DNA from: Deltaproteobacteria bacterium
Lineage (GTDB): Bacteria; Desulfobacterota; DSM-4660; Desulfatiglandales; Desulfatiglandaceae
DNA length: 64,000 bases
NCBI GenBank assembly: GCA_019309145.1
Contig: JAFDGR010000002.1
Location: forward strand, 8,674-72,673
Direction: 5' to 3'
Shown here in pieces: positions 6,512 to 30,250 of the stretch. Both the position numbers and the translations under genes were made by a program. The notes under the pieces were generated by a model. The model made no database searches and had not been told where the DNA came from. It worked only from the letters and a program-made list of their open reading frames with translations. Numbering within the stretch: position 1 is the stretch's first letter; each line of letters opens with the position of its first letter.

Positions 6512-9316
6512 TTAGTCGGATGAACCTATTTTTTCGACTCTGACCTTGATATATTTCAAGAGAGGTGTGCCTCCTATATCTTCAGCGGTGTCAGGCTTCA
6601 TGATCCCTGCCGCGTTCATTCCACCGAAATGGGGATATTTGGGATCACCTTCCAGTCCTCTTGCATGCCCGAATCCGCCAGCGGCACCAAGGACCCCCCG
6701 CATGATTGACCAGGTCGTTTGGGCTTTCATCTCAATTGCACCCCATGGAGACTTGAGCAATACCTTTTCGCCATTGTTGATTCCCAGTTCGCTGGCATCA
6801 AGCATGTTGATCCACAAAGTGTTGGTCCCTACCATTTTCATGAGTTGATAATTGCTAAAGGTGGATGAATGCTCATGTTCGTAAAGCCGGAAGTTTCCAA
6901 ACACAAAAGGATACTCACTGTCGGGCATGAGGTCTTTTGCCGGTTCTTTGTAATCTGGTAGAGGATCAAGCCCCTTTTCCTGCGCAACGGGGTTTATGAA
7001 GTTGTACTTTCCAGTCTTACTCTTGCCTGAGGACCCGTAGCCATCGGGAGGATTGATAGATTCCCACCTCTTGTATTTGTAATAGGCTGCTTCATCAGTG
7101 ATAATAAAACCCTTTTCTTTGAGTTCTCCAAAAGACCATGGAGTCCCTTGCAGTTGGTTACGAAAGGCATCTTCAATATCCTCCCACGGAAAATAGTGGC
7201 CAAGCCCGAGTCTCTTTGCCAGTTCAACAGTTATTTTCCACATGGGCTTGGTATCATACATAGGTTTGACAACCTCGGCGAAATATCCAATGAAGGCCTC
7301 ATAAAGCCAGTCAGGTTTCACCTGACTCTGTTCCAACCAGGTGGAATCGGGGAGAATAACATCACACAAAAGCGCGCTGTTGCACATATATGCCTCAATA
7401 GCTGCTTTGAATTCCATCAGTTCAATAGCCTTTGTGGTTGCTTGTTGATTCCCCCATGATAAAACAGGATCACCAAAATATATGATCAATCCTTTTAGTT
7501 TCCCGGCTTTCACATCTGACAAAACAAGCGCGGGCGCCCATCCGCTCCAGATGCCGAAAGTATCAAGCTTGGGTGCTGGTTTTTCGGGAGGCTTTTCTTG
7601 CCCATCTCCCCATGGGGATTTCAGTTTTCGCTTAAATGGCAAAGAAGGGCCTCCAGGGGCGTCAAAGGTCCCGCAAAGCCCGTTCAATGCTTGTATTGCT
7701 GCAGTACTATACATACCGTTAGGCACTTGTGCGAGCCCGGTCCATGATGCGGTACCCTTGTTTTTTGATTTCGCAAATTCAATGGCAATTCGCTCAATTG
7801 TTTCAGCGGGAACACCGCTTATTTTGGATGCCCACTCAGGACTCCTGACGATGCCGTCTTCGTCTCCCAAGACTCTTTTTTTGAATTCTTCAAATCCGTG
7901 TGTCCAATTTTCTACGAAGTCTCTATCATAGAGATTGTTCTTTATGATGACGTAACACATTGCCATGGCTACAGCGCCATCCGTAGCCGGTTTTATAGGG
8001 ATCCATTCTGTGGCAGCGGCCGCTGTTTCAGATCTCCTGGGATCGAAAACGACGAGTTTGGCGCCTTTTTTTATTGCGGCCTTGAGCTGTGCGGTTTTCC
8101 TTTGTCCATAAGAACTCGCAAACTCGTTCATGCCAAAATGGAGAATATAGTCTGAATCCTCGTAATTGATCCATGGCCTCTTATCGCAAAGGTTATGTTC
8201 ATTGGCCATACGATTGGAGTTGTCACACATTGGTCGATGTGTGGTCTTGGGACATCCGAAATGGGCAAATAACGCTTCATGTATCCAGTTTATGAAATCG
8301 TTGCCTCGGAAATAACCGAGTTTTCCCTCTTCTATGTTTTGAATGCCGTTGGCTACTTTATCCAAAGCCTCGTCCCACGATGCCTTGCGAAATCTCCCAT
8401 TTTCTTTGATAAGGGGGGCCTTGAGTCGATACGCAGAATAAAGGTGTTTTGCCGCAGAGCCTCCTTTTGGGCAGAGCCTGCCGCCTCCTTTTGGATCACC
8501 ATTGAGTCCGGAAGTGCCGACGAGGATGCCGTCTTTTAATTTTGCAGTCATTCCACACAAAGCACCACACGTATAGCAGTGGGTTGGTACCTGCTTGTCG
8601 GGGAGCGGTTCTTCTGAGCCTTCAGCAAGTGTGGCGTAGGCCGAGTCAAGGTTCAGGGAATCAACCGCAAGCATCAATTCTTCAACCGTTTCCTCGCCTC
8701 TGCTGAAACCCTCAAGCCTCAGGCTTTCGCACATCATCGCCCCCCGGATGAAATGGGCCAGTCCTTGATAGAAATCGGTCTTTGTGGACGCTGCAAGTTG
8801 GTCACAGAATGAAGATACCCATTTGCAGTATTTATTTTTGAAAAAATCTCTATAAAGATCACCGTTTCCTTTTTCGAGCAAGTAACGCAGGAATTCCATC
8901 TCAACCGCAATATGTTCTTCAAGATCCTTAAAATTGGGTGATTTATGCACGCCCGCCTTGCGGAAAAATTCCCGGAGTTCAAATACCGGGTCTTGCATGA
9001 CCACCGGTTTTCCGGTGATGTGCACGGATTCATACGGAAAAACAGGATTTGGGCCGGCATTCAAAAACATGTCCGCGTAATCGTAACGCAGATAGTTAAA
9101 AAGGCTCTGAGTGTCATTGCTTTTGAGACACCTCGTTATCACCTCTGCCCCGTTTATGATATCGAGAAAGCCGCATCCTTTTACGGATTCTTTGAAGCTC
9201 TCGATGAATTTTTCTCTCTGCATGGCGGCAATGAGTTCAAGCGGTATCTCATCCCGGAGAAGCGTGGAAAGAAAATGATACCTTTTCGCCCTTGATTTCA
9301 TGTAGTTGTCATCCAT
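6512..9316 (-). CDS. Molybdopterin (bis-MGD) oxidoreductase catalytic subunit fused to an N-terminal TorD/DmsD/NarJ-like chaperone domain
   Basis: aa 1-~205 look TorD-like (YDYADMFLNAGPNPVFPYESV, EEHIAVEMEFLRYLL). Next comes the Fe-S motif HCYTCGALCG...GRLCPKG, a probable Mo-ligand region HRPMCDNS, and a long MopB/beta-barrel C-terminus. There is no RR Tat leader. RBS AAAGGAGGG. Confidence 0.8.
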   Translation of the reverse strand: MDDNYMKSRAKRYHFLSTLLRDEIPLELIAAMQREKFIESFKESVKGCGFLDIINGAEVITRCLKSNDTQSLFNYLRYDYADMFLNAGPNPVFPYESVHITGKPVVMQDPVFELREFFRKAGVHKSPNFKDLEEHIAVEMEFLRYLLEKGNGDLYRDFFKNKYCKWVSSFCDQLAASTKTDFYQGLAHFIRGAMMCESLRLEGFSRGEETVEELMLAVDSLNLDSAYATLAEGSEEPLPDKQVPTHCYTCGALCGMTAKLKDGILVGTSGLNGDPKGGGRLCPKGGSAAKHLYSAYRLKAPLIKENGRFRKASWDEALDKVANGIQNIEEGKLGYFRGNDFINWIHEALFAHFGCPKTTHRPMCDNSNRMANEHNLCDKRPWINYEDSDYILHFGMNEFASSYGQRKTAQLKAAIKKGAKLVVFDPRRSETAAAATEWIPIKPATDGAVAMAMCYVIIKNNLYDRDFVENWTHGFEEFKKRVLGDEDGIVRSPEWASKISGVPAETIERIAIEFAKSKNKGTASWTGLAQVPNGMYSTAAIQALNGLCGTFDAPGGPSLPFKRKLKSPWGDGQEKPPEKPAPKLDTFGIWSGWAPALVLSDVKAGKLKGLIIYFGDPVLSWGNQQATTKAIELMEFKAAIEAYMCNSALLCDVILPDSTWLEQSQVKPDWLYEAFIGYFAEVVKPMYDTKPMWKITVELAKRLGLGHYFPWEDIEDAFRNQLQGTPWSFGELKEKGFIITDEAAYYKYKRWESINPPDGYGSSGKSKTGKYNFINPVAQEKGLDPLPDYKEPAKDLMPDSEYPFVFGNFRLYEHEHSSTFSNYQLMKMVGTNTLWINMLDASELGINNGEKVLLKSPWGAIEMKAQTTWSIMRGVLGAAGGFGHARGLEGDPKYPHFGGMNAAGIMKPDTAEDIGGTPLLKYIKVRVEKIGSSD

Positions 9317-9448
9317 ATTGCTCTGTCCCTCCTTTTGCCTTCCTGATTTACTGGATTTTTTTCAGAAAACAAAGCGTGGCGTACAATGAAATGGTCCCAT
9401 CAGCGTTGCGGGAAAATCATAGTATCTGGATCAGTCAGGGTCAAGGTC

Positions 9449-9480
9449 AAAAAAAACGAAAGAGGGCTTACCCAGCCCTC
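9449..9480 (-). terminator. Intrinsic-terminator-like hairpin inside the 5' leader of the molybdoenzyme gene
   Basis: The minus strand reads GAGGGC-tgggtaa-GCCCTC followed by TTTCGTTTTTTTT. It sits about 135-165 nt upstream of the ATG at 9316. Confidence 0.5.
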
Positions 9481-9526
9481 GTGTGGTAATAGAATACGTC
9501 TTTCTTTGGGCAATGCATTTAATAAC

Positions 9527-9554
9527 TTGACAAGTGAATAAGAACAGATATATT
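9527..9554 (+). promoter_or_regulatory. Candidate sigma-70 promoter for the tauE-like operon
   Basis: TTGACA (9527-9532), 16-nt spacer, TATATT (9549-9554). Confidence 0.35.
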
Positions 9555-9750
9555 CCATTATGACGATATAATTTGATGCGGTAGAAAAGCTGCAAAATGG
9601 AGCATTGGAGGAATAGCAGACATGCATATGTTTTGCTGTGATCATAGAAATGGCTTTTGCCCTGATAGAAGAAGCCATAAATATTGACTATTTTTTTGTC
9701 TTTTTAAATAGCTAAATCGAAATAAGACAATGTTAAAGGAGGGCTTGGCT

Positions 9751-10581
9751 ATGATTATGCATTCACCACAGATTATTGCTTTATTGATCACGGGGATTTG
9801 TGTTGGTTTTGCCTCTGGACTCTTGGGGGTGGGCGGCTGCTTTATTATGGTACCTGTCCAGTATTGGGTCCTCAAAGCCATTGGGGTAGATCCAACGATC
9901 GCTATTCGTATTGCCTTTGGTACAAATCTTCTAGTTGTTCTTCCAACCGCCCTCAGTGGGTCCATGACGCACCATAGGAAGGGTGCTGTCCTGTGGAAGG
10001 CAGGGATTACCTTAGGGGTAACCGGCGCTGTTGGTGCGTTTTTCGGAGCATTCTTGGCTGCTCACCTGCCCGCAAAGGTCCTTACCGTGGCATTCGGGGT
10101 TGCGGTCATATTGGGAGCCGTAAGAATGTTGACGGCAAAACCACCGAAAATTACGGATGAACCGCCGGAAAGCCTTGCCCCATACATCCTGTGGGGGGTT
10201 CCGTTGGGCATCGTTTCTGGGATCATAGGGATCGGCGGTGGTGTCCTGATGGTCCCCATTATGGTATTCTTCCTGAAGTTCAAGATACACCAGGCAGTGG
10301 GGACCTCAACAGCCTTGATGATATTTACGGCCATCGGAGGCGCGCTATCCTTCCTCCTGAATGGCCTTGGAGTTCAGGGACTGCCACCATATTCAACCGG
10401 GTACCTGAACTGGCTCCAGTGGGTGCTCCTTGCCGGGTGCAGTATCCCCATGGCCATGGTAGGGGCAAGGGCTGCACATAAGTTGCCTGCCAAACAGCTG
10501 AAGTATTTATTTATCATCGTCATGTTTTATATGGGCCTGAAAATGATCGGAGTTTTTGCCTGGTTGCATTTACCTATATAA
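9751..10581 (+). CDS. TauE/SafE-family anion (sulfite/sulfonate-type) permease
   Basis: Polytopic protein with duplicated G-rich helices (GLLGVGGCFIMVP and GIIGIGGGVLMVP). ATG 9751 is preceded by AAGGAGG. The ORF also has an upstream ATG at 9730. Confidence 0.75.
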   Translation: MIMHSPQIIALLITGICVGFASGLLGVGGCFIMVPVQYWVLKAIGVDPTIAIRIAFGTNLLVVLPTALSGSMTHHRKGAVLWKAGITLGVTGAVGAFFGAFLAAHLPAKVLTVAFGVAVILGAVRMLTAKPPKITDEPPESLAPYILWGVPLGIVSGIIGIGGGVLMVPIMVFFLKFKIHQAVGTSTALMIFTAIGGALSFLLNGLGVQGLPPYSTGYLNWLQWVLLAGCSIPMAMVGARAAHKLPAKQLKYLFIIVMFYMGLKMIGVFAWLHLPI

Positions 10582-11478: not shown

Positions 11479-12272
11479 AGCTTGTCGTCATATGTGCGAT
11501 TATTTTTGTGCTGGCAGTGGTCATGACCATGGCCGGAAGGGGAGGCGGGAATTTCTATGTCCTGCTCCTGGTGGTCTCCGGGATTCCCATGCACCAGGCG
11601 GCCACAACGGGCCAGTTTATCCTTTTTATGACGGCCCTGTCAGCATTTTTCGTATTCCAGAAAAACAAGGCAGTGGTCTGGCCCCTGGCCATCCTCATCG
11701 GGACACTCACGGCATCCGCTGCCTTTGCCGGCGGGTATTTTTCACACTGGTTCAGTGGTTTCACCCTGAAAATTATATTTTCGGGTCTGCTTGCCATAGC
11801 AGGCCTGATGCTTTTGCCCATCAAAGAGCGCGGTGAACATGGGACAAAAAAAGGGTTTGGATACTGGCGCTTTGAATCGGGAGGGCAAACCTACACGGTG
11901 AACCTGTGGGTTGCCGTTTCCGTGACCCTTTCGGCAGGGTTTGGCTCGGGAATGGTGGGTGTATCCGGCGGTTCGTTTCTCGTCCCTCTTATGGTCCTTG
12001 CATGTGGAGTACCCATGCGGGCGGCAGTCGGCACGGCGTCGACGCTCATCGCTTCAACAGCCCTTATGGGATTCATCGGGCATACGATCCAGGGTGATTT
12101 CAGCCCTGCTCTTGCGCTTCCTCTTGCAGTGGTAACTATTGTGGGCGGCTTTATCGGAGGAAAATTTGCCATGAAAACGAAGCCAAAGCACCTAAAGCTT
12201 CTTTTTGCGTACACGACCCTGCTCGCCGCCCTTTTTATGGTGGTCAATGCCTTCTACTCCAGAGTCTCATAG
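11472..12272 (+). CDS. TauE/SafE-family anion permease (second copy)
   Basis: MLKLVVICAIIF... is polytopic, with GRGGGNFYVLLLV and GVSGGSFLVPLMV repeats. The ATG overlaps the Isf stop (ATGCTGA), which suggests translational coupling. Confidence 0.75.
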   Translation: MLKLVVICAIIFVLAVVMTMAGRGGGNFYVLLLVVSGIPMHQAATTGQFILFMTALSAFFVFQKNKAVVWPLAILIGTLTASAAFAGGYFSHWFSGFTLKIIFSGLLAIAGLMLLPIKERGEHGTKKGFGYWRFESGGQTYTVNLWVAVSVTLSAGFGSGMVGVSGGSFLVPLMVLACGVPMRAAVGTASTLIASTALMGFIGHTIQGDFSPALALPLAVVTIVGGFIGGKFAMKTKPKHLKLLFAYTTLLAALFMVVNAFYSRVS

Positions 12273-12341: not shown

Positions 12342-12686
12342 ATGAAGGATTTTATAAAAACCATAAAGGCCCTTTCCGACCCGAACAGGGTCAAGATTCT
12401 CAAGATGCTCCAGCACAAGAGTATGTGCGTGTGCGAGCTGCAGGTAGCTCTGGGCGTTGCCCAGCCGACCGTATCCAAGCACCTGAAAATACTGGAGGAA
12501 GCAGGTTTTGTGACGTATGAAAAGGATGGCCTTTGGGTCAATTATCACCTCACTGACGGGAGCAGCAGCCCCTATGTGGCAAGCCTGCTCGGAAATCTGC
12601 GGCACTGGTTGGAAGAGGAGCCGGAAGTGGCACGTTTGAAAAAGGAACTGCCCATGATCAACCGGGAGGATATCTGCAGGAAGTAA
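12342..12686 (+). CDS. arsR: ArsR/SmtB-family metalloregulator
   Basis: Winged HTH with the As(III)-type site MCVCEL and QPTVSKHLKILEEAGFV. 114 aa. Confidence 0.85.
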   Translation: MKDFIKTIKALSDPNRVKILKMLQHKSMCVCELQVALGVAQPTVSKHLKILEEAGFVTYEKDGLWVNYHLTDGSSSPYVASLLGNLRHWLEEEPEVARLKKELPMINREDICRK

Positions 12687-12703
12687 TTTTTTTTGCACTT
12701 TTC

Positions 12704-12723
12704 ATATTACTCTATGGAAATAT
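12704..12723. promoter_or_regulatory. Second, imperfect ArsR-type operator upstream of the permease gene
   Basis: ATATTACT-ctat-GGAAATAT. The left half is identical to the arsR operator and the right half matches 6/8. It overlaps a TATAAT at 12721-12726. Confidence 0.4.
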
Positions 12724-12766
12724 AATGCGCAAGAAAGGGCCAATTGAAAAGGAGTAAGGGAAGAGA

Positions 12767-13939
12767 ATGAAAGAAAGATGGAAGTTGCTGCTGATTATCC
12801 TGATTTTTGTTGCATGCTATTACGTGCCGTGGGCCAGTCCGACCATTCGCAAATCCGGCCTGGAAGCCTTCATGATGCTCCAGGAATATGCTCGCCAGCA
12901 TGTGCTGACCTGTTTGATCCCGGCGTTTTTCATTGCCGGAGCTATTTCGGTTTTCGTCTCGCAGGCATCCGTCCTGAAATATTTCGGTGCCACGGCAAAA
13001 AAAATCCTTTCCTATTCAGTGGCCTCTGTTTCCGGGAGCATCCTGGCCGTATGTTCCTGCACGGTCCTGCCCCTCTTTGCGGGAATCTATACCCGCGGGG
13101 CCGGCATCGGACCGGCCACGGCATTCCTCTATTCAGGACCTGCCATTAATGTCCTTGCCATCGTGCTCACCGCCAGGGTCCTGGGGTGGCAGTTGGGGCT
13201 TGCGAGGGCAGTTGGCGCAGTGCTTTTTGCCGTCATTACCGGGCTTCTCATGGCTCTCATTTTTCGGAAAGATGACGCGGCCCGTACTGCCGGACAAATA
13301 TACCTGCCGGATGAGGAGGGGAAGGGGAGGACGCTTCTCCAGGATTCTCTTTTTATCCTTATCATGGTGCTGATCCTTATCTTTGCCGCCTTTGCCCGTC
13401 CGGCTCCCGGATCAACGGGCCTCTGGCCCGCCATATTCGCGGCCAAGTGGTACATCACGGCCGGTTTGCTTGTGATCCTTGGGTTCATGCTCAAGGCATG
13501 GTTTGTAAAGGAAGAACGGGTAACCTGGGTCCAGTCCACCTGGGGGTTCATGAAACAGATCTTTCCGCTCCTGGGGGCGGGGGTCCTGGTGGCCGGGTTC
13601 ATGCTGGGAAGGCCCGGTCATTCGGCACTGATCCCGGAGCACTATATTGAGATGCTGGTGGGAGGGAATTCCCTGTGGGCGAATTTGTTTGCGTCGGTTT
13701 CAGGGGCGCTTATGTATTTCGCAACGCTGACCGAGGTCCCTATTTTGCAGGGGCTCATGGGAGCGGGCATGGGCAAGGGACCGGCCCTTTCCCTGCTGCT
13801 GGCCGGACCGGCTCTGTCGCTTCCCAACATGCTGGTAATCGGCGGGGTTATGGGGGTTAAGAAGACGGCCACATTCTGCGCGATCATTGTGGTGCTCTCC
13901 ACCATCGCCGGAATGTGCTACGGCTGGATCGCAGGGTAA
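12767..13939 (+). CDS. PF03773-type permease (ArsP / SO_0444-like metal(loid) efflux permease)
   Basis: 390-aa polytopic ORF with a CSCTVLPLFAGIY motif. It sits between arsR and thioredoxin-fold genes, a common conserved arrangement. Confidence 0.7.
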   Translation: MKERWKLLLIILIFVACYYVPWASPTIRKSGLEAFMMLQEYARQHVLTCLIPAFFIAGAISVFVSQASVLKYFGATAKKILSYSVASVSGSILAVCSCTVLPLFAGIYTRGAGIGPATAFLYSGPAINVLAIVLTARVLGWQLGLARAVGAVLFAVITGLLMALIFRKDDAARTAGQIYLPDEEGKGRTLLQDSLFILIMVLILIFAAFARPAPGSTGLWPAIFAAKWYITAGLLVILGFMLKAWFVKEERVTWVQSTWGFMKQIFPLLGAGVLVAGFMLGRPGHSALIPEHYIEMLVGGNSLWANLFASVSGALMYFATLTEVPILQGLMGAGMGKGPALSLLLAGPALSLPNMLVIGGVMGVKKTATFCAIIVVLSTIAGMCYGWIAG

Positions 13940-13943
13940 ATTG

Positions 13944-14075
13944 GACAGGATTCACAGGATTTTCAGGACTGTTTGCCTCCCGCGTCGCGGGATCCAGGTA
14001 GTGTAGGTGATTGCTGTTTGCCTGGTTGCCTCCGGCAAGCAGGCAAAAAAATCGGTTAATCCTGTAGATCCTGTC
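13944..14075. repeat. Structured intergenic element bounded by 18-bp inverted repeats
   Basis: GACAGGATTCACAGGATT (13944-13961) pairs with AATCCTGTAGATCCTGTC (14058-14075) at 16/18. Inside are the hairpins CCCGCG-tc-GCGGG and TTGCCTGgTTGCC-tcc-GGCAAgCAGGCAA, plus a direct repeat CTGTTTGCCT. Confidence 0.55.
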
Positions 14076-14133
14076 TAAAGCCCAAACGGGAAAACTGAAC
14101 TTTGCGTTCTTGGCGTCTTTGCGGTGGGATTCT

Positions 14134-14643
14134 ATGGAGGGAAGAGTGGCACAGGATGACGTGATTCAGATAAAGGTGGATGGTCATGGGGTTGGGATCA
14201 TCGGCCTGAAAAGAGTGATGGAAGATATGGCGGAAGCGTATGCCCAAAAGTCCGACGAAGAGGTCGGGTCCGAATTGCTGAGCAGGCTCCGCAGAAAGAA
14301 CTATATCCCGGATAGTGCTGCCGAGGGGTACAAGAGGGCCTTTGTCCGGGAATTCCGGAAATTCCTTGGCCAGCCCTTTGAGGAGGATATATCCGGGGGG
14401 ATAGAGATCAAGGTGCTTGGTCCCGGATGTGCCCAGTGCGACCGGCTGGAAAAGGAACTCATCGAGGTTATGGCGGAAACGAATGTTATTGCGGATGTGG
14501 AGCACATCAGGGATATTAAAGAAATCGGGAAGTATGGTATTATGGGGACGCCGGCACTCCTCATTAATGGGGATGTCAAATCGGTGGGGAAGGTTCCACC
14601 CAAAACAAAGCTCATTGAATGGCTAAATCAGGCGAAAGGTTAA
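14134..14643 (+). CDS. Thioredoxin-fold (redox-active disulfide protein 2-like) protein with ~95-aa N-terminal extension
   Basis: The C-terminal 75 aa, IEIKVLGPGCAQCDRLEKEL...GTPALLINGDVKSVGKVP, are paralogous to the next gene. The N-terminal domain was not recognised. Confidence 0.55.
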   Translation: MEGRVAQDDVIQIKVDGHGVGIIGLKRVMEDMAEAYAQKSDEEVGSELLSRLRRKNYIPDSAAEGYKRAFVREFRKFLGQPFEEDISGGIEIKVLGPGCAQCDRLEKELIEVMAETNVIADVEHIRDIKEIGKYGIMGTPALLINGDVKSVGKVPPKTKLIEWLNQAKG

Positions 14644-14669
14644 AGGCGAAAGGCAAAAGGAGGAATATC

Positions 14670-14903
14670 ATGGAGATAAAGGTCCTTGGGACTGCGTGTG
14701 CCAACTGTGAAAAAGCGGAAAAACTCGTTCGCGAAGCGGTCCGGGAAACAGGCATTGATGCACAGGTGGTGAAGGTGCAGGACACCATGGAGATCGCGAA
14801 GGCGGGGGTGTTTATGACACCCGCCGTGGTAGTGGATGGCGATGTAAAATGTGTGGGCAAAGTGCCGAAGAAGGAAGAGGTAATCAGGTGGCTCACCAGG
14901 TGA
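14670..14903 (+). CDS. Small thioredoxin-fold protein (redox-active disulfide protein 2 family)
   Basis: MEIKVLGTACANCEKAEKL...TPAVVVDGDVKCVGKVP, with a CxxC motif. RBS AAAGGAGG. 77 aa. Confidence 0.75.
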   Translation: MEIKVLGTACANCEKAEKLVREAVRETGIDAQVVKVQDTMEIAKAGVFMTPAVVVDGDVKCVGKVPKKEEVIRWLTR

Positions 14904-14977
14904 CGGGATGAGCGGGAGCGCATACTTCGAGATATGATTCACTCGGTGTGCATTTCATAAAAACGACCGAAAAAGGG

Positions 14978-15763
14978 ATGTTGTTGTCTATGATGTACCC
15001 CAATATCAATCCAGTACTGATTCAGGTGGGGCCCTTTGCTGTCCGGTGGTACGGGCTCATGTACGTGGTGGGCTTTCTGCTGGGGTATTTCGTGCTCCTG
15101 AAGCTCTCCCAACGGGAACAGTATGATCTCACGAAACAGGAAGTGGGGGATCTCCTGTATTTCTGCATAGCGGGCCTGGTAGTGGGGGCGCGGCTGGGAT
15201 ACTGCCTGATCTACAATTTTTCATACTATATCCATGAACCGCTCAAGATGTTTGCGGTCTGGGAAGGTGGCATGTCCTTCCACGGCGGGCTGGCAGGAGC
15301 GGCAGTAGCAGGCTGGATCTTTGCCCGCAGGCGCCATAAATCTCTCCTGATGATTGCGGACCTTGGGGCTGTTGCAGCGCCTTTGGGGCTTTTTTTCGGC
15401 CGGATCGGCAATTTTATCAACGGGGAACTCTATGGAAGGGTGACTTCCATGCCGTGGGGCATGGTTTTCCCGGGAGCAGGAAATCTTCCACGACATCCTT
15501 CACAACTCTACGAGGCTTTTTTTGAAGGCCTGGTTTTGTTCTCCATCCTGCTCTGGTTGAGCAGAAAGCAGCGCCCCCCTGGCTTCCTGATGGCTTCATT
15601 CCTCACAGGATACGGGGTGTTTCGGTTTTTCCTGGAGTTTTTCAGGGATCCGGACCCGCAAATGAGGTTTGTTATGGGTCCTTTCACCATGGGCCAGGTG
15701 CTCTGCAGCATCATGGTCGCGGCAGGTATCCTCTTGTTCTGGCTTTGCCGAAGACGCGGGTGA
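14978..15763 (+). CDS. lgt: Prolipoprotein diacylglyceryl transferase
   Basis: INPVLIQVGPFAVRWYGLMYVVGF, GGMSFHGGLAG, FGRIGNFINGELYGR. The start is ambiguous (ATG 14978, 14990 or 14993). Confidence 0.85.
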   Translation: MLLSMMYPNINPVLIQVGPFAVRWYGLMYVVGFLLGYFVLLKLSQREQYDLTKQEVGDLLYFCIAGLVVGARLGYCLIYNFSYYIHEPLKMFAVWEGGMSFHGGLAGAAVAGWIFARRRHKSLLMIADLGAVAAPLGLFFGRIGNFINGELYGRVTSMPWGMVFPGAGNLPRHPSQLYEAFFEGLVLFSILLWLSRKQRPPGFLMASFLTGYGVFRFFLEFFRDPDPQMRFVMGPFTMGQVLCSIMVAAGILLFWLCRRRG

Positions 15764-15860
15764 GACGGCTCACCGAACCTGTTCTTACTTTCTTCAAATA
15801 GCTAACGGCTTCTGAACCAATAAATGGGATCAGTGGAAGATCAAAGTGCGAGAGAAAATA

Positions 15861-16961
15861 ATGAAGCAGCTTTCTTTTCTGGACCGGCTCCTGACCCTGT
15901 GGATCTTTCTGGCCATGTTTGTGGGGGTGGGATGGGGGTATCTTTTCCCCGGTGTCAGGAACGTGATAAATTACTTCCAAGTGGGTACGACTAACATCCC
16001 CATTGCCATCGGCCTGATCCTGATGATGTACCCGCCTCTGGCAAAGGTGAAATACGAGGAGATGGGGTATGTATTCCGGGACTACAAGGTCCTTTTCCTC
16101 TCCCTGGTACAGAACTGGGTCATCGGTCCCATCCTTATGTTTCTGCTGGCCATTGCCTTCCTGTCCGGGCACCATGAATACATGGTGGGGCTCATCATGA
16201 TCGGTCTAGCGCGATGTATCGCCATGGTCCTGGTGTGGAATGACCTGGCTTCCGGTGACGCGGAATATTGTGCCGGGCTGGTAGCCTTTAACTCTGTTTT
16301 TCAGGTCCTCTTCTTTTCCCTCTATGCCTACATCTTTATTACCGTAATTCCCCAGTGGCTCGGGTTAAAGGGGGCCGTTGTGAACATCTCTATCGGACAG
16401 ATCGGGGAGAGCGTTTTTATTTACCTGGGGATCCCCTTTATAGCAGGTGTGCTCTCGCGGCTGATCGGGCTCAAGACCAAGGGCCGCGAATGGTATGAAA
16501 AGAAGTTTATCCCCAAGATCAGTCCCATTACCCTGATCGCACTGCTTTTTACGATCCTGGTCATGTTCTCCCTCAAAGGGGAATATATTGTCCAGCTTCC
16601 CTTGGACGTGGTTCGGGTGGCGATGCCCCTTTGCATCTATTTTGTGATTATGTTCTTTGTTTCATTTTATATGTCAATGAAGGTGGGCGCAACCTACGAG
16701 CAGTCAACCACCTTGAGCTTTACGGCCGCTTCCAACAACTTTGAGCTGGCAATTGCCGTGGCGGTAGCGGTCTTCGGCATTGATTCCGGCCAGGCCTTTG
16801 CTGCGGTCATTGGCCCCCTGGTGGAGGTGCCGGTGCTCATCAGCCTGGTCAACGTGGCATTGTGGTTCAAGCGGCGGTATTTTCCTTATGCCGTGGAGAC
16901 GCCTACCGGCGTATGCCACCTCACCTGCGAACCAGCAGCGGGTTCCCGGTTTCAGAAATGA
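15861..16961 (+). CDS. acr3: ACR3-family arsenite efflux permease
   Basis: [19 protein letters not shown]..., [54 protein letters not shown]. Confidence 0.9.
16826..16919. repeat. 94-bp block identical to 19567-19660 (3' end of acr3)
   Basis: Direct comparison shows the two copies are identical over 94 nt. The roughly 120 nt upstream are only about 87% identical, with mostly synonymous changes. Confidence 0.85.
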
Positions 16962-17173: not shown

Positions 17174-17653
17174 TCATTCCTTTGTCGCCACGCCAACCAG
17201 GAAACCGCACAAGAGAGAACCAAGAATGGTGGCCAGAGTGAATATGAGCACATATATCCATCCGAAGTAGGAGATCATGATCGGTAAGAGGACCGGTTTA
17301 ACCGCCCTGTTGTTCAGAAAGATGGCAATCAGGGAATCCTTTGCCCCTCTTCCCTTCAATTCCTTTAACAGAGGGTACCAGGCGTAGATCGGGCCAACCG
17401 ATATGATTCCCGCGAGTGCGGAAACAACAACGCCTTTGAACCCGGATTCTTTTCCAAGGAGTGCGGTTAGACGTGAAGGTTTCAAGAAAAGGTTGAGAAG
17501 GAATATGAGAAAGAAAACAAGACTGAGCGCGATGCCGATCCTCAAGAAAATAGATATGCTTCCCCTGAAGGCGATGAGTGCCTTGTCCGGCAAAAAAATG
17601 AGCAACACGCCGTAAATGACGGCCACGAAACCTGGAAAAAGGAAAGATCGCAC
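17174..17653 (-). CDS. C-terminal half of a split PF03773-type membrane permease
   Basis: 159-aa, four-helix hydrophobic ORF that begins 4 nt after the upstream gene on the same strand. Confidence 0.55.
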   Translation of the reverse strand: MRSFLFPGFVAVIYGVLLIFLPDKALIAFRGSISIFLRIGIALSLVFFLIFLLNLFLKPSRLTALLGKESGFKGVVVSALAGIISVGPIYAWYPLLKELKGRGAKDSLIAIFLNNRAVKPVLLPIMISYFGWIYVLIFTLATILGSLLCGFLVGVATKE

Positions 17654-17657
17654 GAAA

Positions 17658-18437
17658 CTATCCCCCGAACAGGTTCAATATCAAACCAGTGACAATTGCA
17701 GCACCTATGGAGACCACGAAAGAAAGACTGTTCCGCAGGATGGAAAACCTGGGCTCCAGGGCAACCATCTCCGCAGGCAACTGGATGAGGCCTACACTTA
17801 CCCAGGTCATCATGAATGCGGTTACCGCAAAAAGATTTACCCCATTATCCAGCATTTCGCCACCGATGATATAGCTGTTAATGGGATTCCCGGGTAGAAT
17901 ACTGCCAAAACATGCTCCCCAGATGGTGTCCACTATTTTATTTCCGGAAAATATTGAAAGCAGTAACTCTTTCGAAATGAATGCCTTGAACAGACCCATG
18001 AGGAGGACAATACTGATGAGAATCGGCAGCATTTTTCCAAATTGACCGGCAGTCTTTGACAGGGCCTCAGGGACATTTTCCCAACGGGTTTTTTCAGGCT
18101 TCGCCAATGTGGAATCAGCACTGCTTTTTCTCGGTCGCTTATATTGCTCCACCACGTGTGAAACTGTTGATTCTATCCCGGTGACGACCTCAATGTTGTA
18201 TGCCTTCAGGTAGTTTTCAGCAGCGGGACTGCTGTACCCGGTGAGCACAACATCAACTTTTTGCTCGATAGCAAGGGCAACCGCCTGCATGCCACTTCCG
18301 GAACCCGCACCAGGATTTTTCAGAGCTTCAAATGCCATGGTTTCTAGGTTCACAATGATCAGGTAAGGTGAGGTCCCGAGCCTGTGGCCCACTCTTGATT
18401 CTAAACCGGGGCCTTCTGATGAAATGGCAATTTTCAT
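17658..18437 (-). CDS. NifB/NifX-like (dinitrogenase Fe-Mo cofactor-binding fold) domain fused to the N-terminal half of a split permease
   Basis: aa 1-~100: MKIAISSEG...SRVGHRLGTSPYLIIVNLET...VDVVLTGYSSPAAENYLKAYNIEVV. aa ~130-259 are hydrophobic with GSILPGNPINSYIIGG. Confidence 0.6.
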   Translation of the reverse strand: MKIAISSEGPGLESRVGHRLGTSPYLIIVNLETMAFEALKNPGAGSGSGMQAVALAIEQKVDVVLTGYSSPAAENYLKAYNIEVVTGIESTVSHVVEQYKRPRKSSADSTLAKPEKTRWENVPEALSKTAGQFGKMLPILISIVLLMGLFKAFISKELLLSIFSGNKIVDTIWGACFGSILPGNPINSYIIGGEMLDNGVNLFAVTAFMMTWVSVGLIQLPAEMVALEPRFSILRNSLSFVVSIGAAIVTGLILNLFGG

Positions 18438-21328: not shown

Positions 21329-24262
21329 ATGAATTACAAAGAGTTGCTCGAAAAATACAATCTCTTGTTAAGCGAGAACAGCCGCTTGGTAAGAGAAAAT
21401 GACAAGCTAAAGGCACAGATTGAGAAAACGAAGCGCAGGCCTGCTGAAAAGGAATTCACAGGTTCAACCGCAGAAAAAAACATGCTTGACAATGAACCGA
21501 CTGACAGCGCCTCGCTTTCAGGTGTAAACAACAGATCGGATTCGACCTCAAAAATTAGCCTATTTATGTCGCTTTTCAAAGGCCGTGATGATGTGTATGC
21601 GAAGAAATGGGAGAACAAAAAGAAGACAACATCGGGATATTCACCCGTTTGTCTGAATCAATGGGAGGTTGGATTGTGCGGCAAGCCAAAAGCCTCCTGT
21701 TCCAAATGCGCCAATCAGTTATATGACGCTTTGGATGATCATGTCATAGAAAACCATCTGAGAGGGAGTATCATTGTCGGTATCTATCCAATGCTTCCAG
21801 ATGAAACCTGCCACTTTTTAGCAATGGATTTTGATGAAGCCGGCTGGCAAGACGATGTCACAACAGTGAGAGAGGTTTGCGTCGAGTTTGATATTCCGGT
21901 GGCGGTGGAGCGGTCGCAATCCGGTAACGGCGCGCACCTGTGGTTTTTCTTTGAAAACCGATTGCCCGCTGCCTTAGCGAGAAAGTTTGGCACCGCCATT
22001 TTGACCTTTTCTATGAACAGGAGACATGAAATACATTTCAAATCATATGACAGATTGTTTCCCAGTCAGGACACAATGCCCAAAGGAGGTTTTGGCAATC
22101 TGATTGCTCTGCCATTCCAAAAATCTGCAAGGAAGAACAATAATAGCGAATTTATCGATGAAAGCTTTGAATCCTATAGTTATCAGTGGGCATTTTTGTC
22201 ATCGATTCAAAAGATTTCTGAAGACCGCATTAAGGATCTTATACAGAAGCTTTGTCATGACCATGAATTGGGGGCCTTGAAAATCGACGAAGAGGAACAA
22301 GGAAAGCCATGGGAAACACAACCAATCAGCCACCTGAAAAAAAGCGATTTTCCAGAGCAAATCGATATCGTGAAAGCAAATATGTTGTTTATTCCAAAGC
22401 GCAATATCTCCCAAAGGGCATTGAACCGATTGAAAAGATTGGCTTCTTTTAAAAACCCAATGTTTTACAAGCAGCAAGCCATGCGGTTGTCAACGTACGG
22501 ATACCCAAGGATTATCTCGTGTGCGGATGAAACGACGGACTATCTGTGTTTGCCGAGAGGCTGTGAAATGGACCTGCTGGCTGAATTAAAACAATATGGT
22601 ATAGATACTCATCTTATCGATAAGACCTATTGCGGGAAAAGAATAGATGTAGAATTCAACGGCCACTTAAGAGATGAACAACCTTTGGCCCTTGATCAGC
22701 TAATGCAGTATGATATTGGAATACTTTCAGGAACAACCGCTTTTGGGAAAACCATCGTAGCCATCAAGCTGATCGCCGAAAGAAAAGTCAATACCCTTAT
22801 CTTGGTGGATAGGATCGGCTTGCTCAAACAATGGCAGGAACGGTTATCTGAATTTTTGGTCATAAATGAAACCTTACCGGAACTGATTACTCCAGCAGGC
22901 AAAAAAAGAGGGAGAAACAAAAAGGCGGGCGTCATCGGCCAGATGGGCGGGGGCAAAAAAGCCCTAAGTGGTATTGTGGATATTGCCGTTATGCAATCCT
23001 TAAGCAGGAGGGGAGAGGTAAAGAATTGTGTCAAAGACTATGGGATGGTTATTGCGGATGAGTGTCATCATGCTTCGGCTTTCAGCTATGAAAGTATTCT
23101 GAAGGCCACAAATGCCAAGTATGTTTACGGCCTGACAGCCACACCGACACGAAAGGATGGACATCATCCCATACTTTTTATGCATTGCGGTCCAATACGG
23201 TATCGCGATAATGCAAAAAAGCAGGCAGAGAAGAGACCTTTTGACCACTATATCATTCCCCGGTTTACGCGCCTGAGAATTCCTTTGAATAGTGATGAAA
23301 AGGATATTTCCATCCAGGAATTGTATTCTGAAGTTATTGATAATGAACCCCGGAATCAGCAAATTGTCGAAGACGTTCTAGACAGCTATAAACGTGGCAG
23401 GAACTGCATTATTCTAACATTAAGAACCACTCATGTTGAACTGCTTGCGAAGAAATTAGGGGAAGAAATCTCGGATGTTGTGGTGCTGATGGGTGGAATG
23501 GGTTCAAAGACAACACGGGAGGTTCTTCAACGCATTAGGAACACGCCGGCAGATAAAAATCTGATATTGGTGGCTACAGGGCCTTTTATCGGAGAAGGCT
23601 TTGACGAACCTCGCCTTGATACGTTGTTCTTGACTATGCCGGTATCGTGGAAAGGCACACTCCAGCAATATGCCGGAAGACTTCATCGACTGTTTATGGA
23701 TAAAAAGGAAGTGCAGATCTATGATTATGTGGATATCCATGTAAGAATGCTGGAAAGAATGTATCAGAAAAGACTTACTGGGTATGCTTCGATGGGATAC
23801 AAAGCAAAAAGCGAAAATAACATGTCAGCATCATTGGATATTATTTTTGATAAGGACAGCTTTTTGCCTGTTTTCAGCAACGATGTTGCTGCCACAAAAA
23901 AAGAAATTTTAATGGTAAGCCCCTTTGTGAGAAAGAGGCGTTCAGTGCAAATGCTACAACACTTGAGAATCGCCGTTGACAAAGGCATCCGAGTCATTGT
24001 TGTGACAAGACCGGCAGAGGCTTTTGAAGCCAAAGATCGAGTTGCGTTGCAGCGAGTATTGGAGGTACTGGAAAACAACGATATAAGTGTTATTTTTAAA
24101 CCCAATATTCATCAAAAATTCGCAATCATGGATCAAAAGACTGTGTGGTATGGCAGCATCAATCTCTTGAGCTACGGCAATGCTCAGGAAAGCATCATGC
24201 GCATTGAAAGCCCCAATATCGCAAATGAGTTGATGAGAAGTGTAGAAAGCTTGAGCCCCTAA
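21329..24262 (+). CDS. Fusion protein: coiled coil + Cys4 + archaeo-eukaryotic primase (AEP) domain + SF2 DExH helicase + C-terminal HKD (PLD-family) nuclease
   Basis: AEP motifs are AMDFDE (aa 165-170), SGNGAHLWFFF (198-208) and YDRLFP (240-245). Helicase motifs are GTTAFGKT (468-475), DECHH (577-581), TATP (603-606) and QYAGRLHR (779-786). The PLD motif is HQKFAIMDQKTVWYGSIN (928-945), i.e. HxK-x4-D-x6-GSxN. Confidence 0.8.
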   Translation: MNYKELLEKYNLLLSENSRLVRENDKLKAQIEKTKRRPAEKEFTGSTAEKNMLDNEPTDSASLSGVNNRSDSTSKISLFMSLFKGRDDVYAKKWENKKKTTSGYSPVCLNQWEVGLCGKPKASCSKCANQLYDALDDHVIENHLRGSIIVGIYPMLPDETCHFLAMDFDEAGWQDDVTTVREVCVEFDIPVAVERSQSGNGAHLWFFFENRLPAALARKFGTAILTFSMNRRHEIHFKSYDRLFPSQDTMPKGGFGNLIALPFQKSARKNNNSEFIDESFESYSYQWAFLSSIQKISEDRIKDLIQKLCHDHELGALKIDEEEQGKPWETQPISHLKKSDFPEQIDIVKANMLFIPKRNISQRALNRLKRLASFKNPMFYKQQAMRLSTYGYPRIISCADETTDYLCLPRGCEMDLLAELKQYGIDTHLIDKTYCGKRIDVEFNGHLRDEQPLALDQLMQYDIGILSGTTAFGKTIVAIKLIAERKVNTLILVDRIGLLKQWQERLSEFLVINETLPELITPAGKKRGRNKKAGVIGQMGGGKKALSGIVDIAVMQSLSRRGEVKNCVKDYGMVIADECHHASAFSYESILKATNAKYVYGLTATPTRKDGHHPILFMHCGPIRYRDNAKKQAEKRPFDHYIIPRFTRLRIPLNSDEKDISIQELYSEVIDNEPRNQQIVEDVLDSYKRGRNCIILTLRTTHVELLAKKLGEEISDVVVLMGGMGSKTTREVLQRIRNTPADKNLILVATGPFIGEGFDEPRLDTLFLTMPVSWKGTLQQYAGRLHRLFMDKKEVQIYDYVDIHVRMLERMYQKRLTGYASMGYKAKSENNMSASLDIIFDKDSFLPVFSNDVAATKKEILMVSPFVRKRRSVQMLQHLRIAVDKGIRVIVVTRPAEAFEAKDRVALQRVLEVLENNDISVIFKPNIHQKFAIMDQKTVWYGSINLLSYGNAQESIMRIESPNIANELMRSVESLSP

Positions 24263-27380: not shown

Positions 27381-27766
27381 AGGTCTTGTAACGCTCAAGA
27401 ACATTGCAGGATGGATCATGCAACTTATACCGGAACAACTAGTAGAGGGCATAGGGGCCTTGATCCTTGTACGTGGAGATGGGGACAATCCTATGTCAGA
27501 AGTTCGTAGTGCAGGAGAGATAACAGGCGGGCCGCCACCTCTGAGAAAGCGTGATCGATCCCGTTTTCTTCAACGGCCCGATGAAGTGATTCAATCAATC
27601 CGTCATGAGCAACCGCATAATCGCACTTGACATCGGCTTGACAGGGAGAGGATGTAGTTTGATAAATAGGGGCAGTGTATCCGCTCAATGAATAGCGCAA
27701 TGCAGACAACGCAGGGTCGCGACCGGGAGGTCGCTCCTATAAAATTAATGCATGACCAGGAGAACT

Positions 27767-30250
27767 ATGGCTTCCCCAAACCATGAACTGGGACTCGCCA
27801 ACGACTTTGTTCAGTACACCGGGTGCAATATTTTTCTGACGGGGAAGGCGGGCACAGGCAAAACAACCTTTCTCCATAATCTGCATAAAAACACGGCAAA
27901 GAGGATGATTGTTACCGCGCCAACGGGCGTTGCGGCTATCAATGCCGGCGGGGTAACACTCCATTCTTTTTTTCAGTTGCCTTTTGGCCCATTTGTACCG
28001 GGTAGCGAAGCATACGAGCGGAATAAACAGCGCCGCTTCAGGTTCAGTAAGGAAAAAAAGCGGATTATACAAAGCCTTGATTTGCTGGTGATTGACGAAA
28101 TAAGCATGGTACGGGCAGATTTACTCGATGCGGTGGATGCTGTCCTGCGCGGCCATCGCCGGAACAATCAGCCCTTTGGCGGGGTGCAGTTGCTTCTGAT
28201 CGGCGATCTCTATCAGCTTTCTCCGGTGGCCAAACAAGATGAATGGCATCTTTTGGAGCAATATTATGAGTCGGTTTATTTCTTCAGCAGCAAAGCGCTG
28301 AATCTTACTGAACTGATTACCATTGAACTGACGCATATTTTTCGCCAGTCAGACGCCCGTTTTATCAAGCTCCTGAATCGGGTACGTGATAACCGGCTTG
28401 ATGAATCATCCATAGCTGATCTTAATCTCCGTTACATTCCGAATTTTACACCCGGTGAAGATCAGGGTTATATTACCCTGACCACCCACAACCGAAACGC
28501 CGAATCCATCAATCAGACCAGGCTTGACGGCTTGCCCAAAAAGGAACACCGTTTCAAGGCTGAAGTTTCCGGAGATTTTCCTGAACATAACTACCCGACC
28601 CTGGCCACTCTTCTGCTGAAAGAGGGAGCACAGGTTATGTTCGTGCGCAATGATCCCTCTGCTGAAAAACGCTACTACAATGGGAAGATTGGTAAAATAA
28701 CCAAAATTTCGAACAAAAGCATCAGGGTTATCTGTCCCGGTGACAAACAGGAAATCGTGGTTGAACCAATCATTTGGGAGAATATTAAATACACACTGAA
28801 CGAAGAAACAAAGGAAATTGAAGAGGAGATAATCGGTCAATTCAAGCAATACCCCCTGAAACTCGCATGGGCAATCACCATCCACAAAAGCCAGGGGCTG
28901 ACTTTTGAAAAGGCCATTATTGATGCCAAAGCAGCTTTTGCGCATGGTCAAATTTACGTGGCCTTAAGCCGTTGTAAAAGTTTAGAGGGCATGGTGCTGA
29001 GCGCTCCCCTCTCATCTAAGGGAATAGAAACGGACGAAGCTATAAGGGGCTTTGACGAAAACGCCCGCCAAAACCCGCCCACCGAAAGCCGGCTTCAGAA
29101 AGCCAAAATCAACTACCAGCAGCAGCTAGTGCTTGATTGTTTCGATTTTTCCTTATTGCGCAACCGGCTCAATTATCTTGCCCGGATTTTGCTGGGAAAC
29201 GCCGGAGTTGTGCAGGTTTCAGGCGTTGAAGATATCCGCCAACTGCAGAAAAAGGCTGCGGAAAGCATTTTTGTTGTCAGTGAAAATTTTAAGCGGCAAT
29301 TACGCACAATTTTTGCGAATGGCGGTTTGCCCGAGTCAGATGCAGTTATTTTGGAACGGATTGGCAAGGCGTCAGCGTGGTTTCAGGGAAAGTTCGCCGA
29401 AATTTTTGGGGAGTCAGTGCCTAGATTGCATGTAGAAACAGATAACACTGAACTCCGTAAGAAAATTGACAACGCGTTGAATAATCTCAAAAAGGAAATT
29501 GCCGTAAAGGTAGTCGGCGTGCAATCTTGTGAGAAAGGATTTACTCCGTCAAGATTCCTGCGTGCCGTTTCAGCCGCTGAGATCGACTTTACCCCTGAAA
29601 AAGAAAAAAAGCGCCGGCCCCCAGTCTACACCGAAGCGGACGTTGCCCATCCGGAGCTTTTCCAGACCCTGAAGGAGTGGCGTTCCCGCAAGGCCAGGGA
29701 GGAAGAGGTCGCCCATTTTCAAGTCTTACATCAACAAGTACTGCTCCAGATTGCGGTATGCCTGCCCGGCAGTACTGCTGATTTGATGAAGATAAAGGGG
29801 GTCGGCAAGAAAACCATTGAAAAATACGGTGAAGAATTGGTGAAACTGGTTTTGGCCTATCGCGAAAAACACGGGATAAAAAAGATCTTACCGCCGCAGC
29901 CTGAGAAATTTCCTAAAGAAAATACCCTGGAAAAATATGCTGCTCCAACTTACAATACAAAACAGATAAGTTTCGATATGTTCAATAACGGGTTGACGAT
30001 TGACCGGATTGCACAGGAAAGAGGACTGGTGCAATCGACCATTGAAACGCACCTGACTTTTTTCGTGGAAAAAGGTAAACTGGATATCAATAAATTGCTT
30101 TCACCTGAAAAACAAAAGGCCATTGAAAAGGAACTTGCTTCAGATCACCATAATTCCCTCAGCGAAGTAAAAAATGCCCTGGGAGATGACTATTCCTATG
30201 GAGAAATCAAAATGATGTTGGCCTATCAGAAACACCTGGCATCAGAATAA
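27767..30250 (+). CDS. Pif1/RecD-like SF1B helicase with C-terminal HRDC and HTH domains
   Basis: NIFLTGKAGTGKTT, VTAPTGVAAINAGGVTLHSFF, LLVIDEISMV, AITIHKSQGLTF. An HRDC-like IKGVGKKTIEKYGEEL and a terminal HTH LTIDRIAQERGLVQSTIETHL follow. ATG 27767 has an AGGAGA RBS, and an alternative ATG lies at 27752. Confidence 0.8.
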   Translation: MASPNHELGLANDFVQYTGCNIFLTGKAGTGKTTFLHNLHKNTAKRMIVTAPTGVAAINAGGVTLHSFFQLPFGPFVPGSEAYERNKQRRFRFSKEKKRIIQSLDLLVIDEISMVRADLLDAVDAVLRGHRRNNQPFGGVQLLLIGDLYQLSPVAKQDEWHLLEQYYESVYFFSSKALNLTELITIELTHIFRQSDARFIKLLNRVRDNRLDESSIADLNLRYIPNFTPGEDQGYITLTTHNRNAESINQTRLDGLPKKEHRFKAEVSGDFPEHNYPTLATLLLKEGAQVMFVRNDPSAEKRYYNGKIGKITKISNKSIRVICPGDKQEIVVEPIIWENIKYTLNEETKEIEEEIIGQFKQYPLKLAWAITIHKSQGLTFEKAIIDAKAAFAHGQIYVALSRCKSLEGMVLSAPLSSKGIETDEAIRGFDENARQNPPTESRLQKAKINYQQQLVLDCFDFSLLRNRLNYLARILLGNAGVVQVSGVEDIRQLQKKAAESIFVVSENFKRQLRTIFANGGLPESDAVILERIGKASAWFQGKFAEIFGESVPRLHVETDNTELRKKIDNALNNLKKEIAVKVVGVQSCEKGFTPSRFLRAVSAAEIDFTPEKEKKRRPPVYTEADVAHPELFQTLKEWRSRKAREEEVAHFQVLHQQVLLQIAVCLPGSTADLMKIKGVGKKTIEKYGEELVKLVLAYREKHGIKKILPPQPEKFPKENTLEKYAAPTYNTKQISFDMFNNGLTIDRIAQERGLVQSTIETHLTFFVEKGKLDINKLLSPEKQKAIEKELASDHHNSLSEVKNALGDDYSYGEIKMMLAYQKHLASE

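Follow-up and report, generated by a model that had tools for sequence, protein, structure and literature searches.

A TorD/NarJ-family domain fused to a leaderless Psr/Phs-like molybdoenzyme in the Desulfobacterota

We analyzed a 64-kb stretch of DNA (contig JAFDGR010000002.1, from a member of the Desulfatiglandaceae), which we will call the window. The gene of interest encodes a molybdopterin oxidoreductase whose N-terminus is a TorD/NarJ-type chaperone domain. A sequence-only reading of the window had proposed this fusion, and it is borne out by matches to Pfam and NCBIfam models, by alignment to the TorD of known structure (1n1c), and by the predicted fold.

The fusion gene

The gene lies on the minus strand (Table 1), and its single open reading frame (ORF) encodes four Pfam domains in this order: Nitrate_red_del, Molybdop_Fe4S4, Molybdopterin, and Molydop_binding. 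The hallmark strings that the sequence-only reading had quoted are all found in the translation (FPYESV, EEHIAVEMEFLRYL, HCYTCGALCG...C282, and HRPMCDNS). The ribosome-binding site that it quoted (AAAGGAGGG) is also present, with a spacing of 10 nt rather than 9.

The 413-bp divergent intergenic region also contains a terminator-like hairpin (GAGGGCTGGGTAAGCCCTC, followed by a run of T; 9462-9480, minus strand), a short way upstream of the fusion gene's sigma-70-like promoter. We also considered a molybdenum cofactor (Moco) riboswitch upstream of the gene. This is not supported, because Rfam gave no match at gathering score across the whole window; the only match in 9250-9800 was a chance match to Histone3. 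We found no sigma-54 promoter in the window, in contrast to 11 related loci that have an upstream box (described below).

Table 1. Features of the fusion gene and its surroundings, by position in the window.
Feature	Position	Strand	Evidence or comment
Whole fusion ORF	6512..9316	-	934 aa, single intact frame, ATG start
TorD/DmsD/NarJ-family domain, residues 1-201	8714..9316	-	Pfam PF02613, TorD 1n1c alignment, AlphaFold2/Foldseek
Linker, residues 202-240, EGFSRGEETVEELMLAVDSLNLDSAYATLAEGSEEPLPD	8597..8713	-	L221 and G233 invariant, no RR motif
FS0 [4Fe-4S] domain, residues 241-294	8435..8596	-	Pfam PF04879 Molybdop_Fe4S4
Molybdopterin oxidoreductase domain, residues 297-702	7211..8428	-	Pfam PF00384, E = 2.6e-32
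HRPMCDNS segment, Cys364 at 8225-8227	8216..8239	-	Predicted Mo/W ligand; translation checked
Molydop_binding (molybdopterin dinucleotide-binding) domain, residues 805-921	6554..6904	-	Pfam PF01568
Shine-Dalgarno AAAGGAGGG	9327..9335	-	10 nt ahead of ATG
Sigma-70-like promoter TTGACC-17-TATGAT	9416..9444	-	Consensus match only
TauE/TSUP-family permease	9730..10581	+	Pfam TauE, E = 1.2e-55; divergent from fusion gene
FMN_red-family flavoprotein, C42-x2-C45-x2-C48-x5-C54	10894..11478	+	Resembles iron-sulfur flavoprotein
Second TauE/TSUP-family permease	11481..12272	+	Pfam TauE, E = 2e-38; divergent from fusion gene
ArsR, ArsP-type permease, ArsE/MTH895-type thioredoxin-like, Lgt, ACR3	12342-16961	+	Library matches

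The chaperone domain

By sequence, predicted fold, and motifs, the N-terminal ~200 residues are a complete domain of the TorD/DmsD/NarJ family, whose members are also known as redox enzyme maturation proteins (REMPs). Pfam's Nitrate_red_del (PF02613) matches residues 74-172 (E = 8.8e-19; 68.4 bits versus a gathering cutoff of 22.2). Positions 9-200 of the 211 positions in NCBIfam's TorD model align to residues 6-193 of the fusion protein, and residues 9-189 of TorD from Shewanella massilia (1n1c) align to residues 8-189, so the chaperone fold begins at the very N-terminus.

An AlphaFold2 model of residues 1-245 had a mean predicted local distance difference test (pLDDT) of 89.4 and a predicted template modeling score (pTM) of 0.88. 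When we compared this model to known structures with Foldseek, the top 8 matches were all REMPs (YcdY, DmsD, and AF0173; probability 1.00), and NarJ and TtrD were at ranks 11-12. The target-normalized template modeling scores (TMt) were 0.53-0.76 for the REMP matches and 0.62-0.76 for the best ones. The match to the TorD family, on which the sequence-only reading depended, is therefore full-length and significant by sequence as well as by predicted fold.

The REMP motifs in the fusion protein are Y80-A-D-M-F84-L, P94-Y-E-S, and D131-L-E-E-H135. (We take the signature motifs of these chaperones to be aromatic-x-x-L-F and E-P-x-D-H.) A sister clade carries the canonical E-P-E-D-H at the location of D131-L-E-E-H135, and H135 is invariant. 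The other signature residues that are invariant across the family are Y80, A81, F84, L85, and N86; P94, Y95, and S97; W166; and F182 and Y183.

The domain scores 59.3 bits against the TorD equivalog (NCBIfam NF003442), which is far under the cutoff of 132 bits, so it has diverged from canonical TorD. It scores 38.4 bits against the DmsD equivalog (cutoff 162). It is a member of PF02613 that falls outside both of these equivalogs.

We clustered crude gene calls from 82 related loci, of which 78 are full-length and were used for neighbor counts. In all 78 of these, the chaperone domain continues in frame into the catalytic subunit and is not a free-standing protein of ~200 aa that would act in trans. 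We did not find any other TorD-like ORF in the 64-kb window or in the 82 related loci.

The linker and the absence of a Tat leader

Because the chaperone fold starts at the first residues of the protein, there is no room for a twin-arginine translocation (Tat) leader. As the sequence-only reading had it, there is no upstream extension that could provide one: the reading frame is maximal, with the ATG being the first start codon past the upstream in-frame stop, and we found no Tat motif. (The N-terminal SRAKRYHFLS might be mistaken for one. It forms the first helix of the TorD fold, aligned with ARALVYQLLS of TorD, and we rejected it because no hydrophobic h-region follows.)

The chaperone domain is joined to the catalytic part by a linker of 40-45 aa, which is the length of a Tat leader, without an RR motif. 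Relatives that do bear a Tat leader have 43-66 residues ahead of the first Cys of the FS0 iron-sulfur cluster, and in the fusion protein, about 45-52 residues separate the TorD fold from the corresponding Cys247. The conserved residues in the linker are L221, Y227, T229, L230, and G233.

In the AlphaFold2 model of residues 1-245, which lacks the catalytic domain, a linker helix (211-219) and residues 221-230 are predicted with high confidence (pLDDT of 90-94 for 211-230 overall). A strand at 230-232 can pair in this model only with the strand at 123-125, which comes just ahead of the E-E-H135 motif. The model suggests a linker that lies against the chaperone domain in the manner of a bound fossil leader.

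The catalytic part

Judging by its domain order, its FS0 motif, and its Cys ligand, the rest of the protein is a full, leaderless catalytic subunit of the Mo/W-bis-pyranopterin guanine dinucleotide (bisPGD), or DMSO reductase, superfamily. The FS0 motif is C247-x2-C250-x3-C254...C282, with K284 in CPKG; these are the cysteines of the C-x2-C-x3-C...C cluster that was noted in the sequence-only reading. Across 18 family members, there is no variation in the FS0 cysteines, K284, or Cys364. Cys364 aligns with Cys173 of PsrA from Thermus (2vpw) and, in acetylene hydratase, with the Cys of YMCIGN. We take both of these to be metal ligands (of Mo, in PsrA).

Thermus PsrA is also the best relative with a solved structure (E = 1.7e-64, ~30% identity), and a PhsA/PsrA-type model is the best match in NCBIfam. 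With its aligned Cys ligand, the catalytic part is Psr/Phs-like; the sequence-only reading had likened the HRPMCDNS segment to the Cys-ligand region of Psr/Phs/Arr-type enzymes. The scores against specific equivalogs are low: 272 bits for PhsA (cutoff 694) and 236 bits for the alpha subunit of formate dehydrogenase (cutoff 666). Formate dehydrogenases of the FdhF/FdhA type have a (Se)Cys-His pair at the metal site, and in the fusion protein, Cys364 is followed by Asp365.

We did not find a PsrB-like gene (a ferredoxin-type protein with four [4Fe-4S] clusters) or a PsrC/NrfD-like gene next to the fusion gene, either in the window or in the related loci. This agrees with the earlier remark that no iron-sulfur or membrane-anchor subunit is encoded nearby.

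Distribution and conservation of the fusion

A search of a large protein database gave 489 homologs at E ≤ 1e-10. We examined the best 120 of these (60-100% identity, about 930-950 aa), and 117 of them contain all four Pfam domains; the remaining three are truncated. A scan of one genome per species gave 126 loci, so the fusion is present in the genomes of at least 126 species. We examined the best 80 of the 126 loci for coverage and taxonomy. All 80 span the whole protein, and all are labeled as Desulfobacterota lineages, except for one contig of 3.3 kb that was binned as Anaerolineales. The carriers include Desulfohalobium retbaense and Desulfosarcina widdelii, which have complete genomes, as well as Dethiosulfatarculus sandiegensis. 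The fusion proteins of the first two are WP_015752852 (D. retbaense) and DSCW_32130 (D. widdelii). The window itself matches a metagenome-assembled genome from Guaymas Basin (locus L003) at 99%.

The family is tight (55-80% identity), and, judging from an exhaustive comparison with 1.84 billion cluster representatives, it is sharply isolated. That search gave one other full-length member (1171 bits, 55% identity), and the next match was at no more than 284 bits and 36% identity. None of the nearest relatives that we checked (Psr/Phs-like proteins with or without a Tat leader) has a TorD domain. Within the family, the mean pairwise identity is 66-75% for the catalytic domains, 44-52% for the chaperone domain, and 30% for the linker. 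As the chaperone domain is better conserved than the linker, it is under selection and is not decaying.

The two halves of the protein are already named in some automatic annotations, such as JGI's [quoted passage not shown] We did not find a description of a natural TorD-MopB fusion in the open-access literature, and a dedicated survey of the NarJ subfamily contains neither "fusion" nor "fused."

Neighboring genes in the window

As had been noted, the fusion gene is divergent from two genes for TauE-type permeases. The first of these (our cluster c15) recurs beside the fusion gene in loci L003, L007, L019, and L069. Between the two permease genes is an FMN_red-family flavoprotein, which might possibly be the electron carrier of the fusion enzyme; by its sequence, it resembles an iron-sulfur flavoprotein. 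It adjoins the fusion gene only in the genome of the window and in L003. Downstream of the fusion gene is a gene for an alpha/beta hydrolase.

The ars cluster that the sequence-only reading placed nearby is present, and its ACR3 arsenite efflux pump is a clear match (460 bits versus a cutoff of 283). It is not a conserved neighbor across the 78 related loci. Beyond it, two adjacent ORFs (17174-18437, minus strand) each match half of an ArsP-type permease, and the first of them also has an N-terminal Nitro_FeMo-Co domain, which is like those that bind the dinitrogenase cofactor.

Farther away are a 977-aa protein with the archaeo-eukaryotic primase domain of TOTE conflict systems, a helicase domain, and a PLD nuclease domain (21329-24262, plus strand) and a PIF1-like helicase with HRDC and helix-turn-helix domains (27752-30250, plus strand). 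These genes may form a defense or mobile island.

Neighboring genes across related loci

In 33 of the 78 loci, a gene for a TauE-type permease is no more than 8 kb from the fusion gene. In 31 of these 33, the two genes are within 3 kb of each other, and the median distance is ~760 nt. If we consider just the 36 loci with at least 5 kb of sequence on both sides, then 16 have the permease. Several deep branches of the family tree show this link. In most cases, the linked permease has 567 aa, including a periplasmic domain at its N-terminus. The permease gene is either co-directional with the fusion gene (operon-like) or divergent from it. Encoded along with it are small membrane proteins (two or three), a PAS histidine kinase, and an NtrC-type regulator. 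In 11 loci that carry the NtrC-type regulator, a sigma-54 box of the -24/-12 type (TGGTATG-N4-TTGC) lies upstream of the fusion gene. The window, over all of its 64 kb, has neither the DUF8269-TauE module nor the small membrane proteins that partner it (clusters c2, c4, c5, and c6). Comparing the periplasmic domain of c2 to the PDB, and c4, c5, c19, and DUF169 to NCBIfam, gave nothing informative.

In about 12 loci, the fusion gene is beside genes for a periplasmic binding protein (similar to PhnD, PtxB, ArrX, or AioX), a histidine kinase, and a response regulator. Loci with this layout, which resembles the three-component AioXSR system, include L009, L015, L023, L028, L029, L031, L038, L053, and L082. 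In L008, L010, L015, and L082, the gene directly after the fusion gene encodes a porin-like protein of 455-462 aa.

In most of a clade of 21 loci, a receiver-like gene of 123 aa lies 0-33 nt upstream of the fusion gene, and the two genes appear to be co-transcribed where this gene encodes a pseudo-receiver. (The loci of this kind include L002, L046-L061, and L079.) The Desulfosarcina-type version of this CheY-like protein is a pseudo-receiver, as it is missing the four-residue segment that holds the phospho-acceptor Asp; the clade of L063-L070 keeps this Asp.

Two other kinds of neighbors were set aside. First, in L063, L068, and L070, a second MopB gene is beside the fusion gene. It is an unrelated paralog (25-27% identical) with iron-sulfur and GltD-like subunits of its own. 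This second protein is cytoplasmic, has ~700 aa, and is encoded downstream; the subunits that come with it are a ferredoxin of 170 aa and a GltD-like NAD(P)H oxidoreductase of 625 aa. Second, many loci have ORFs of 70-105 aa just upstream of the fusion gene. We treated these as spurious because they do not form a family cluster.

Proposed function and maturation

We lean towards the view that the fusion protein is a Mo/W-bisPGD enzyme of Psr/Phs descent that resides in the cytoplasm, is matured in cis by its fused chaperone domain, receives electrons from a soluble donor, and acts on a small anionic substrate that is linked to TauE-type permeases. The domain architecture, the lack of a leader, the conservation, and the synteny are observed, while the chaperoning in cis, the electron donor, and the class of substrate are inferences. 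In this proposal, a TorD/NarJ-type chaperone would have taken the place of the Tat leader and become covalently attached. Acting in cis, the chaperone domain would keep the newly made catalytic domain competent to receive its cofactor and would aid the insertion of the Fe-S cluster and bisPGD, with the leader-length linker remaining bound to the chaperone domain. As there is no export signal, the holoenzyme would work in the cytoplasm. Since there is no partner subunit, FS0 probably accepts electrons from a soluble low-potential donor of the ferredoxin or flavodoxin type. The enzyme would reduce a small anionic substrate, and the TauE/TSUP module would either import this substrate or carry the product out.

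Maturation in cis is plausible given what is known of separate chaperones. REMPs bind the leader, or its remnant, along with a second site in the mature enzyme, and TorD aids the insertion of bisPGD even without a signal peptide (PMC10609526). NarJ keeps cytoplasmic NarG competent for insertion of FS0 and Moco, and it binds both the remnant leader at the N-terminus of NarG and a site in the mature region (PMC10609526). According to one report, the enzymes served by NarJ in Paracoccus include Nas, an assimilatory nitrate reductase (PMC6618116).

As for the substrate, a small anion is indicated by the conserved link to the TauE/TSUP module and by the oxyanion-type sensors encoded nearby. Sulfite and sulfonates are among the substrates of TauE-family carriers. 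Because of these known substrates and the Psr/Phs ancestry of the enzyme, our first guess is a sulfur compound (thiosulfate, polysulfide, tetrathionate, or sulfite), and other oxyanions are candidates as well.

Several observations weigh against this proposal. The majority of the loci lack a TauE gene within 8 kb; in one large clade, the small receiver or pseudo-receiver gene is directly upstream instead. An AlphaFold2 model of the full-length protein was poor (pLDDT of 66.5, pTM of 0.60). Also, in a pairwise alignment, the positions of His145 and Arg332 of PsrA, which presumably line the active site, are occupied by G338 and G527; this depends on the alignment. Glycine at these positions would speak against a simple assignment as a polysulfide reductase, so we do not call the fusion enzyme a polysulfide or thiosulfate reductase.

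A more specific idea is that the linker is a fossil Tat leader that still sits in the leader-binding site of the chaperone. The fusion would then have frozen a complex of chaperone and precursor, and a once-periplasmic reductase of the Psr/Phs type would have moved to the cytoplasm. We raise this tentatively and consider it possible but doubtful. If it is true, then the protein is a natural, tethered complex of chaperone and apoenzyme, which could reveal the second, mature-region binding site.

Comparison with known systems

The closest functional parallel is NarJ with NarG or Nas: there too, a chaperone of the TorD/NarJ family matures a non-exported Mo-bisPGD enzyme that bears FS0 (PMC10609526; for Nas, as reported in PMC6618116). 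However, NarJ is a separate protein that acts in trans, while here the chaperone is the enzyme's own N-terminal domain, and the catalytic part of the fusion is Psr/Phs-like rather than Nar- or Nas-like. TorD-TorA and DmsD-DmsA share the chaperone fold and the signature motifs with the fusion protein, but TorA and DmsA carry Tat leaders and are exported, unlike the leaderless fusion protein. Similarly, PsrA and PhsA (as in Thermus PsrABC, 2vpw) share the FS0 motif and the aligned Cys ligand, but the fusion lacks both the Tat leader and genes for PsrB and PsrC.

The MOLY cluster of sulfur-disproportionating Desulfobacterota, which has a proposed role with sulfur compounds, also combines a Psr-like molybdoenzyme with a dedicated chaperone (MolyA/MolyB with the TorD/DmsD-type MolyC; PMC12998232, PMC13490349). 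The three MOLY components are not joined to each other, and their complex is predicted to lie outside the cytoplasm. In contrast, the fusion has no B subunit, its chaperone is attached, and it is predicted to be cytoplasmic.

Finally, some unfused Psr/Phs-like enzymes (P0126, P0130, P0135, and P0136) also lack a Tat leader and are among the nearest relatives by sequence (~32-33% identity), but none of those we checked has a TorD domain. Some of these distant relatives bear other fusions: P0160 has an N-terminal 4Fe-4S dicluster ferredoxin, and P0142 has a C-terminal domain that is similar to class-V aminotransferases and cysteine desulfurases.

Alternative explanations

Could the TorD-like domain no longer be a chaperone? 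It might instead be a permanent structural or docking module that, for example, covers the FS0 face (where PsrB would sit), allows dimerization, or recruits a redox partner or regulator. The permanent and conserved fusion would fit with this, as would the absence of genes for partner subunits and the low score against the TorD equivalog (59 versus a cutoff of 132). But the invariant residues of the domain are the signature motifs of the chaperone family, and the predicted packing of the linker on the domain is like that of a bound peptide. Regarding dimerization, TorD from S. massilia forms a domain-swapped dimer (PMC10609526), but our data give no sign of dimerization. Overall, we think that a structural or docking role is unlikely.

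A still less likely alternative is that the N-terminal domain serves as a pro-domain or intramolecular chaperone and is cut off after the cofactor is inserted, leaving a mature enzyme of ~700 aa. Processed maturation domains exist in other metalloenzymes, and the weak conservation of the linker (30% identity) would be compatible with processing. On the other hand, we do not see a conserved cleavage motif in the linker, its conserved residues (L221 through G233, listed above) are predicted to be structured, and there is no conserved protease gene near the fusion gene among the related loci.

The missing electron-transfer subunits could also be explained if the protein were not a redox enzyme, and instead were a hydratase or lyase similar to acetylene hydratase. 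That enzyme is leaderless, monomeric, and from the same broad clade, and its structure (2e7z) is a significant match (E = 2e-43). However, PsrA and the formate dehydrogenases outscore it, and Gly251 of the fusion protein aligns with the Asp in CQSCD of 2e7z. We take this Asp, which follows the second Cys of FS0 (Asp13), to be the catalytic residue of acetylene hydratase, so we consider a hydratase activity to be very improbable.

The idea that the fusion is an artifact of assembly or gene calling, or a dead pseudogene, is refuted: the ORF is intact and strongly conserved, with a strong ribosome-binding site, and the identical architecture recurs in complete genomes of isolates and in hundreds of independent contigs.

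Implications

The fusion bears on the question of how chaperones of the TorD/NarJ type grip the main part of an apo-molybdoenzyme and pass bisPGD to it. According to a recent review, a second chaperone-binding site has been identified only for NarG, and small-angle X-ray scattering failed to locate the site on TorA (PMC10609526). The fusion protein is a naturally tethered 1:1 chain of chaperone and enzyme, and it is encoded by bacteria that can be cultivated (D. retbaense and D. widdelii), which makes it convenient for structural studies and for truncation experiments.

The fusion family is also a conserved and uncharacterized molybdoenzyme, predicted to be cytoplasmic, of sulfate reducers from marine, hypersaline, and hydrothermal environments. 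Because it is linked to TauE/TSUP permeases and oxyanion-type sensors, knowing what it acts on could close a gap in the metabolism of sulfur compounds or other oxyanions in the bacteria that carry it.

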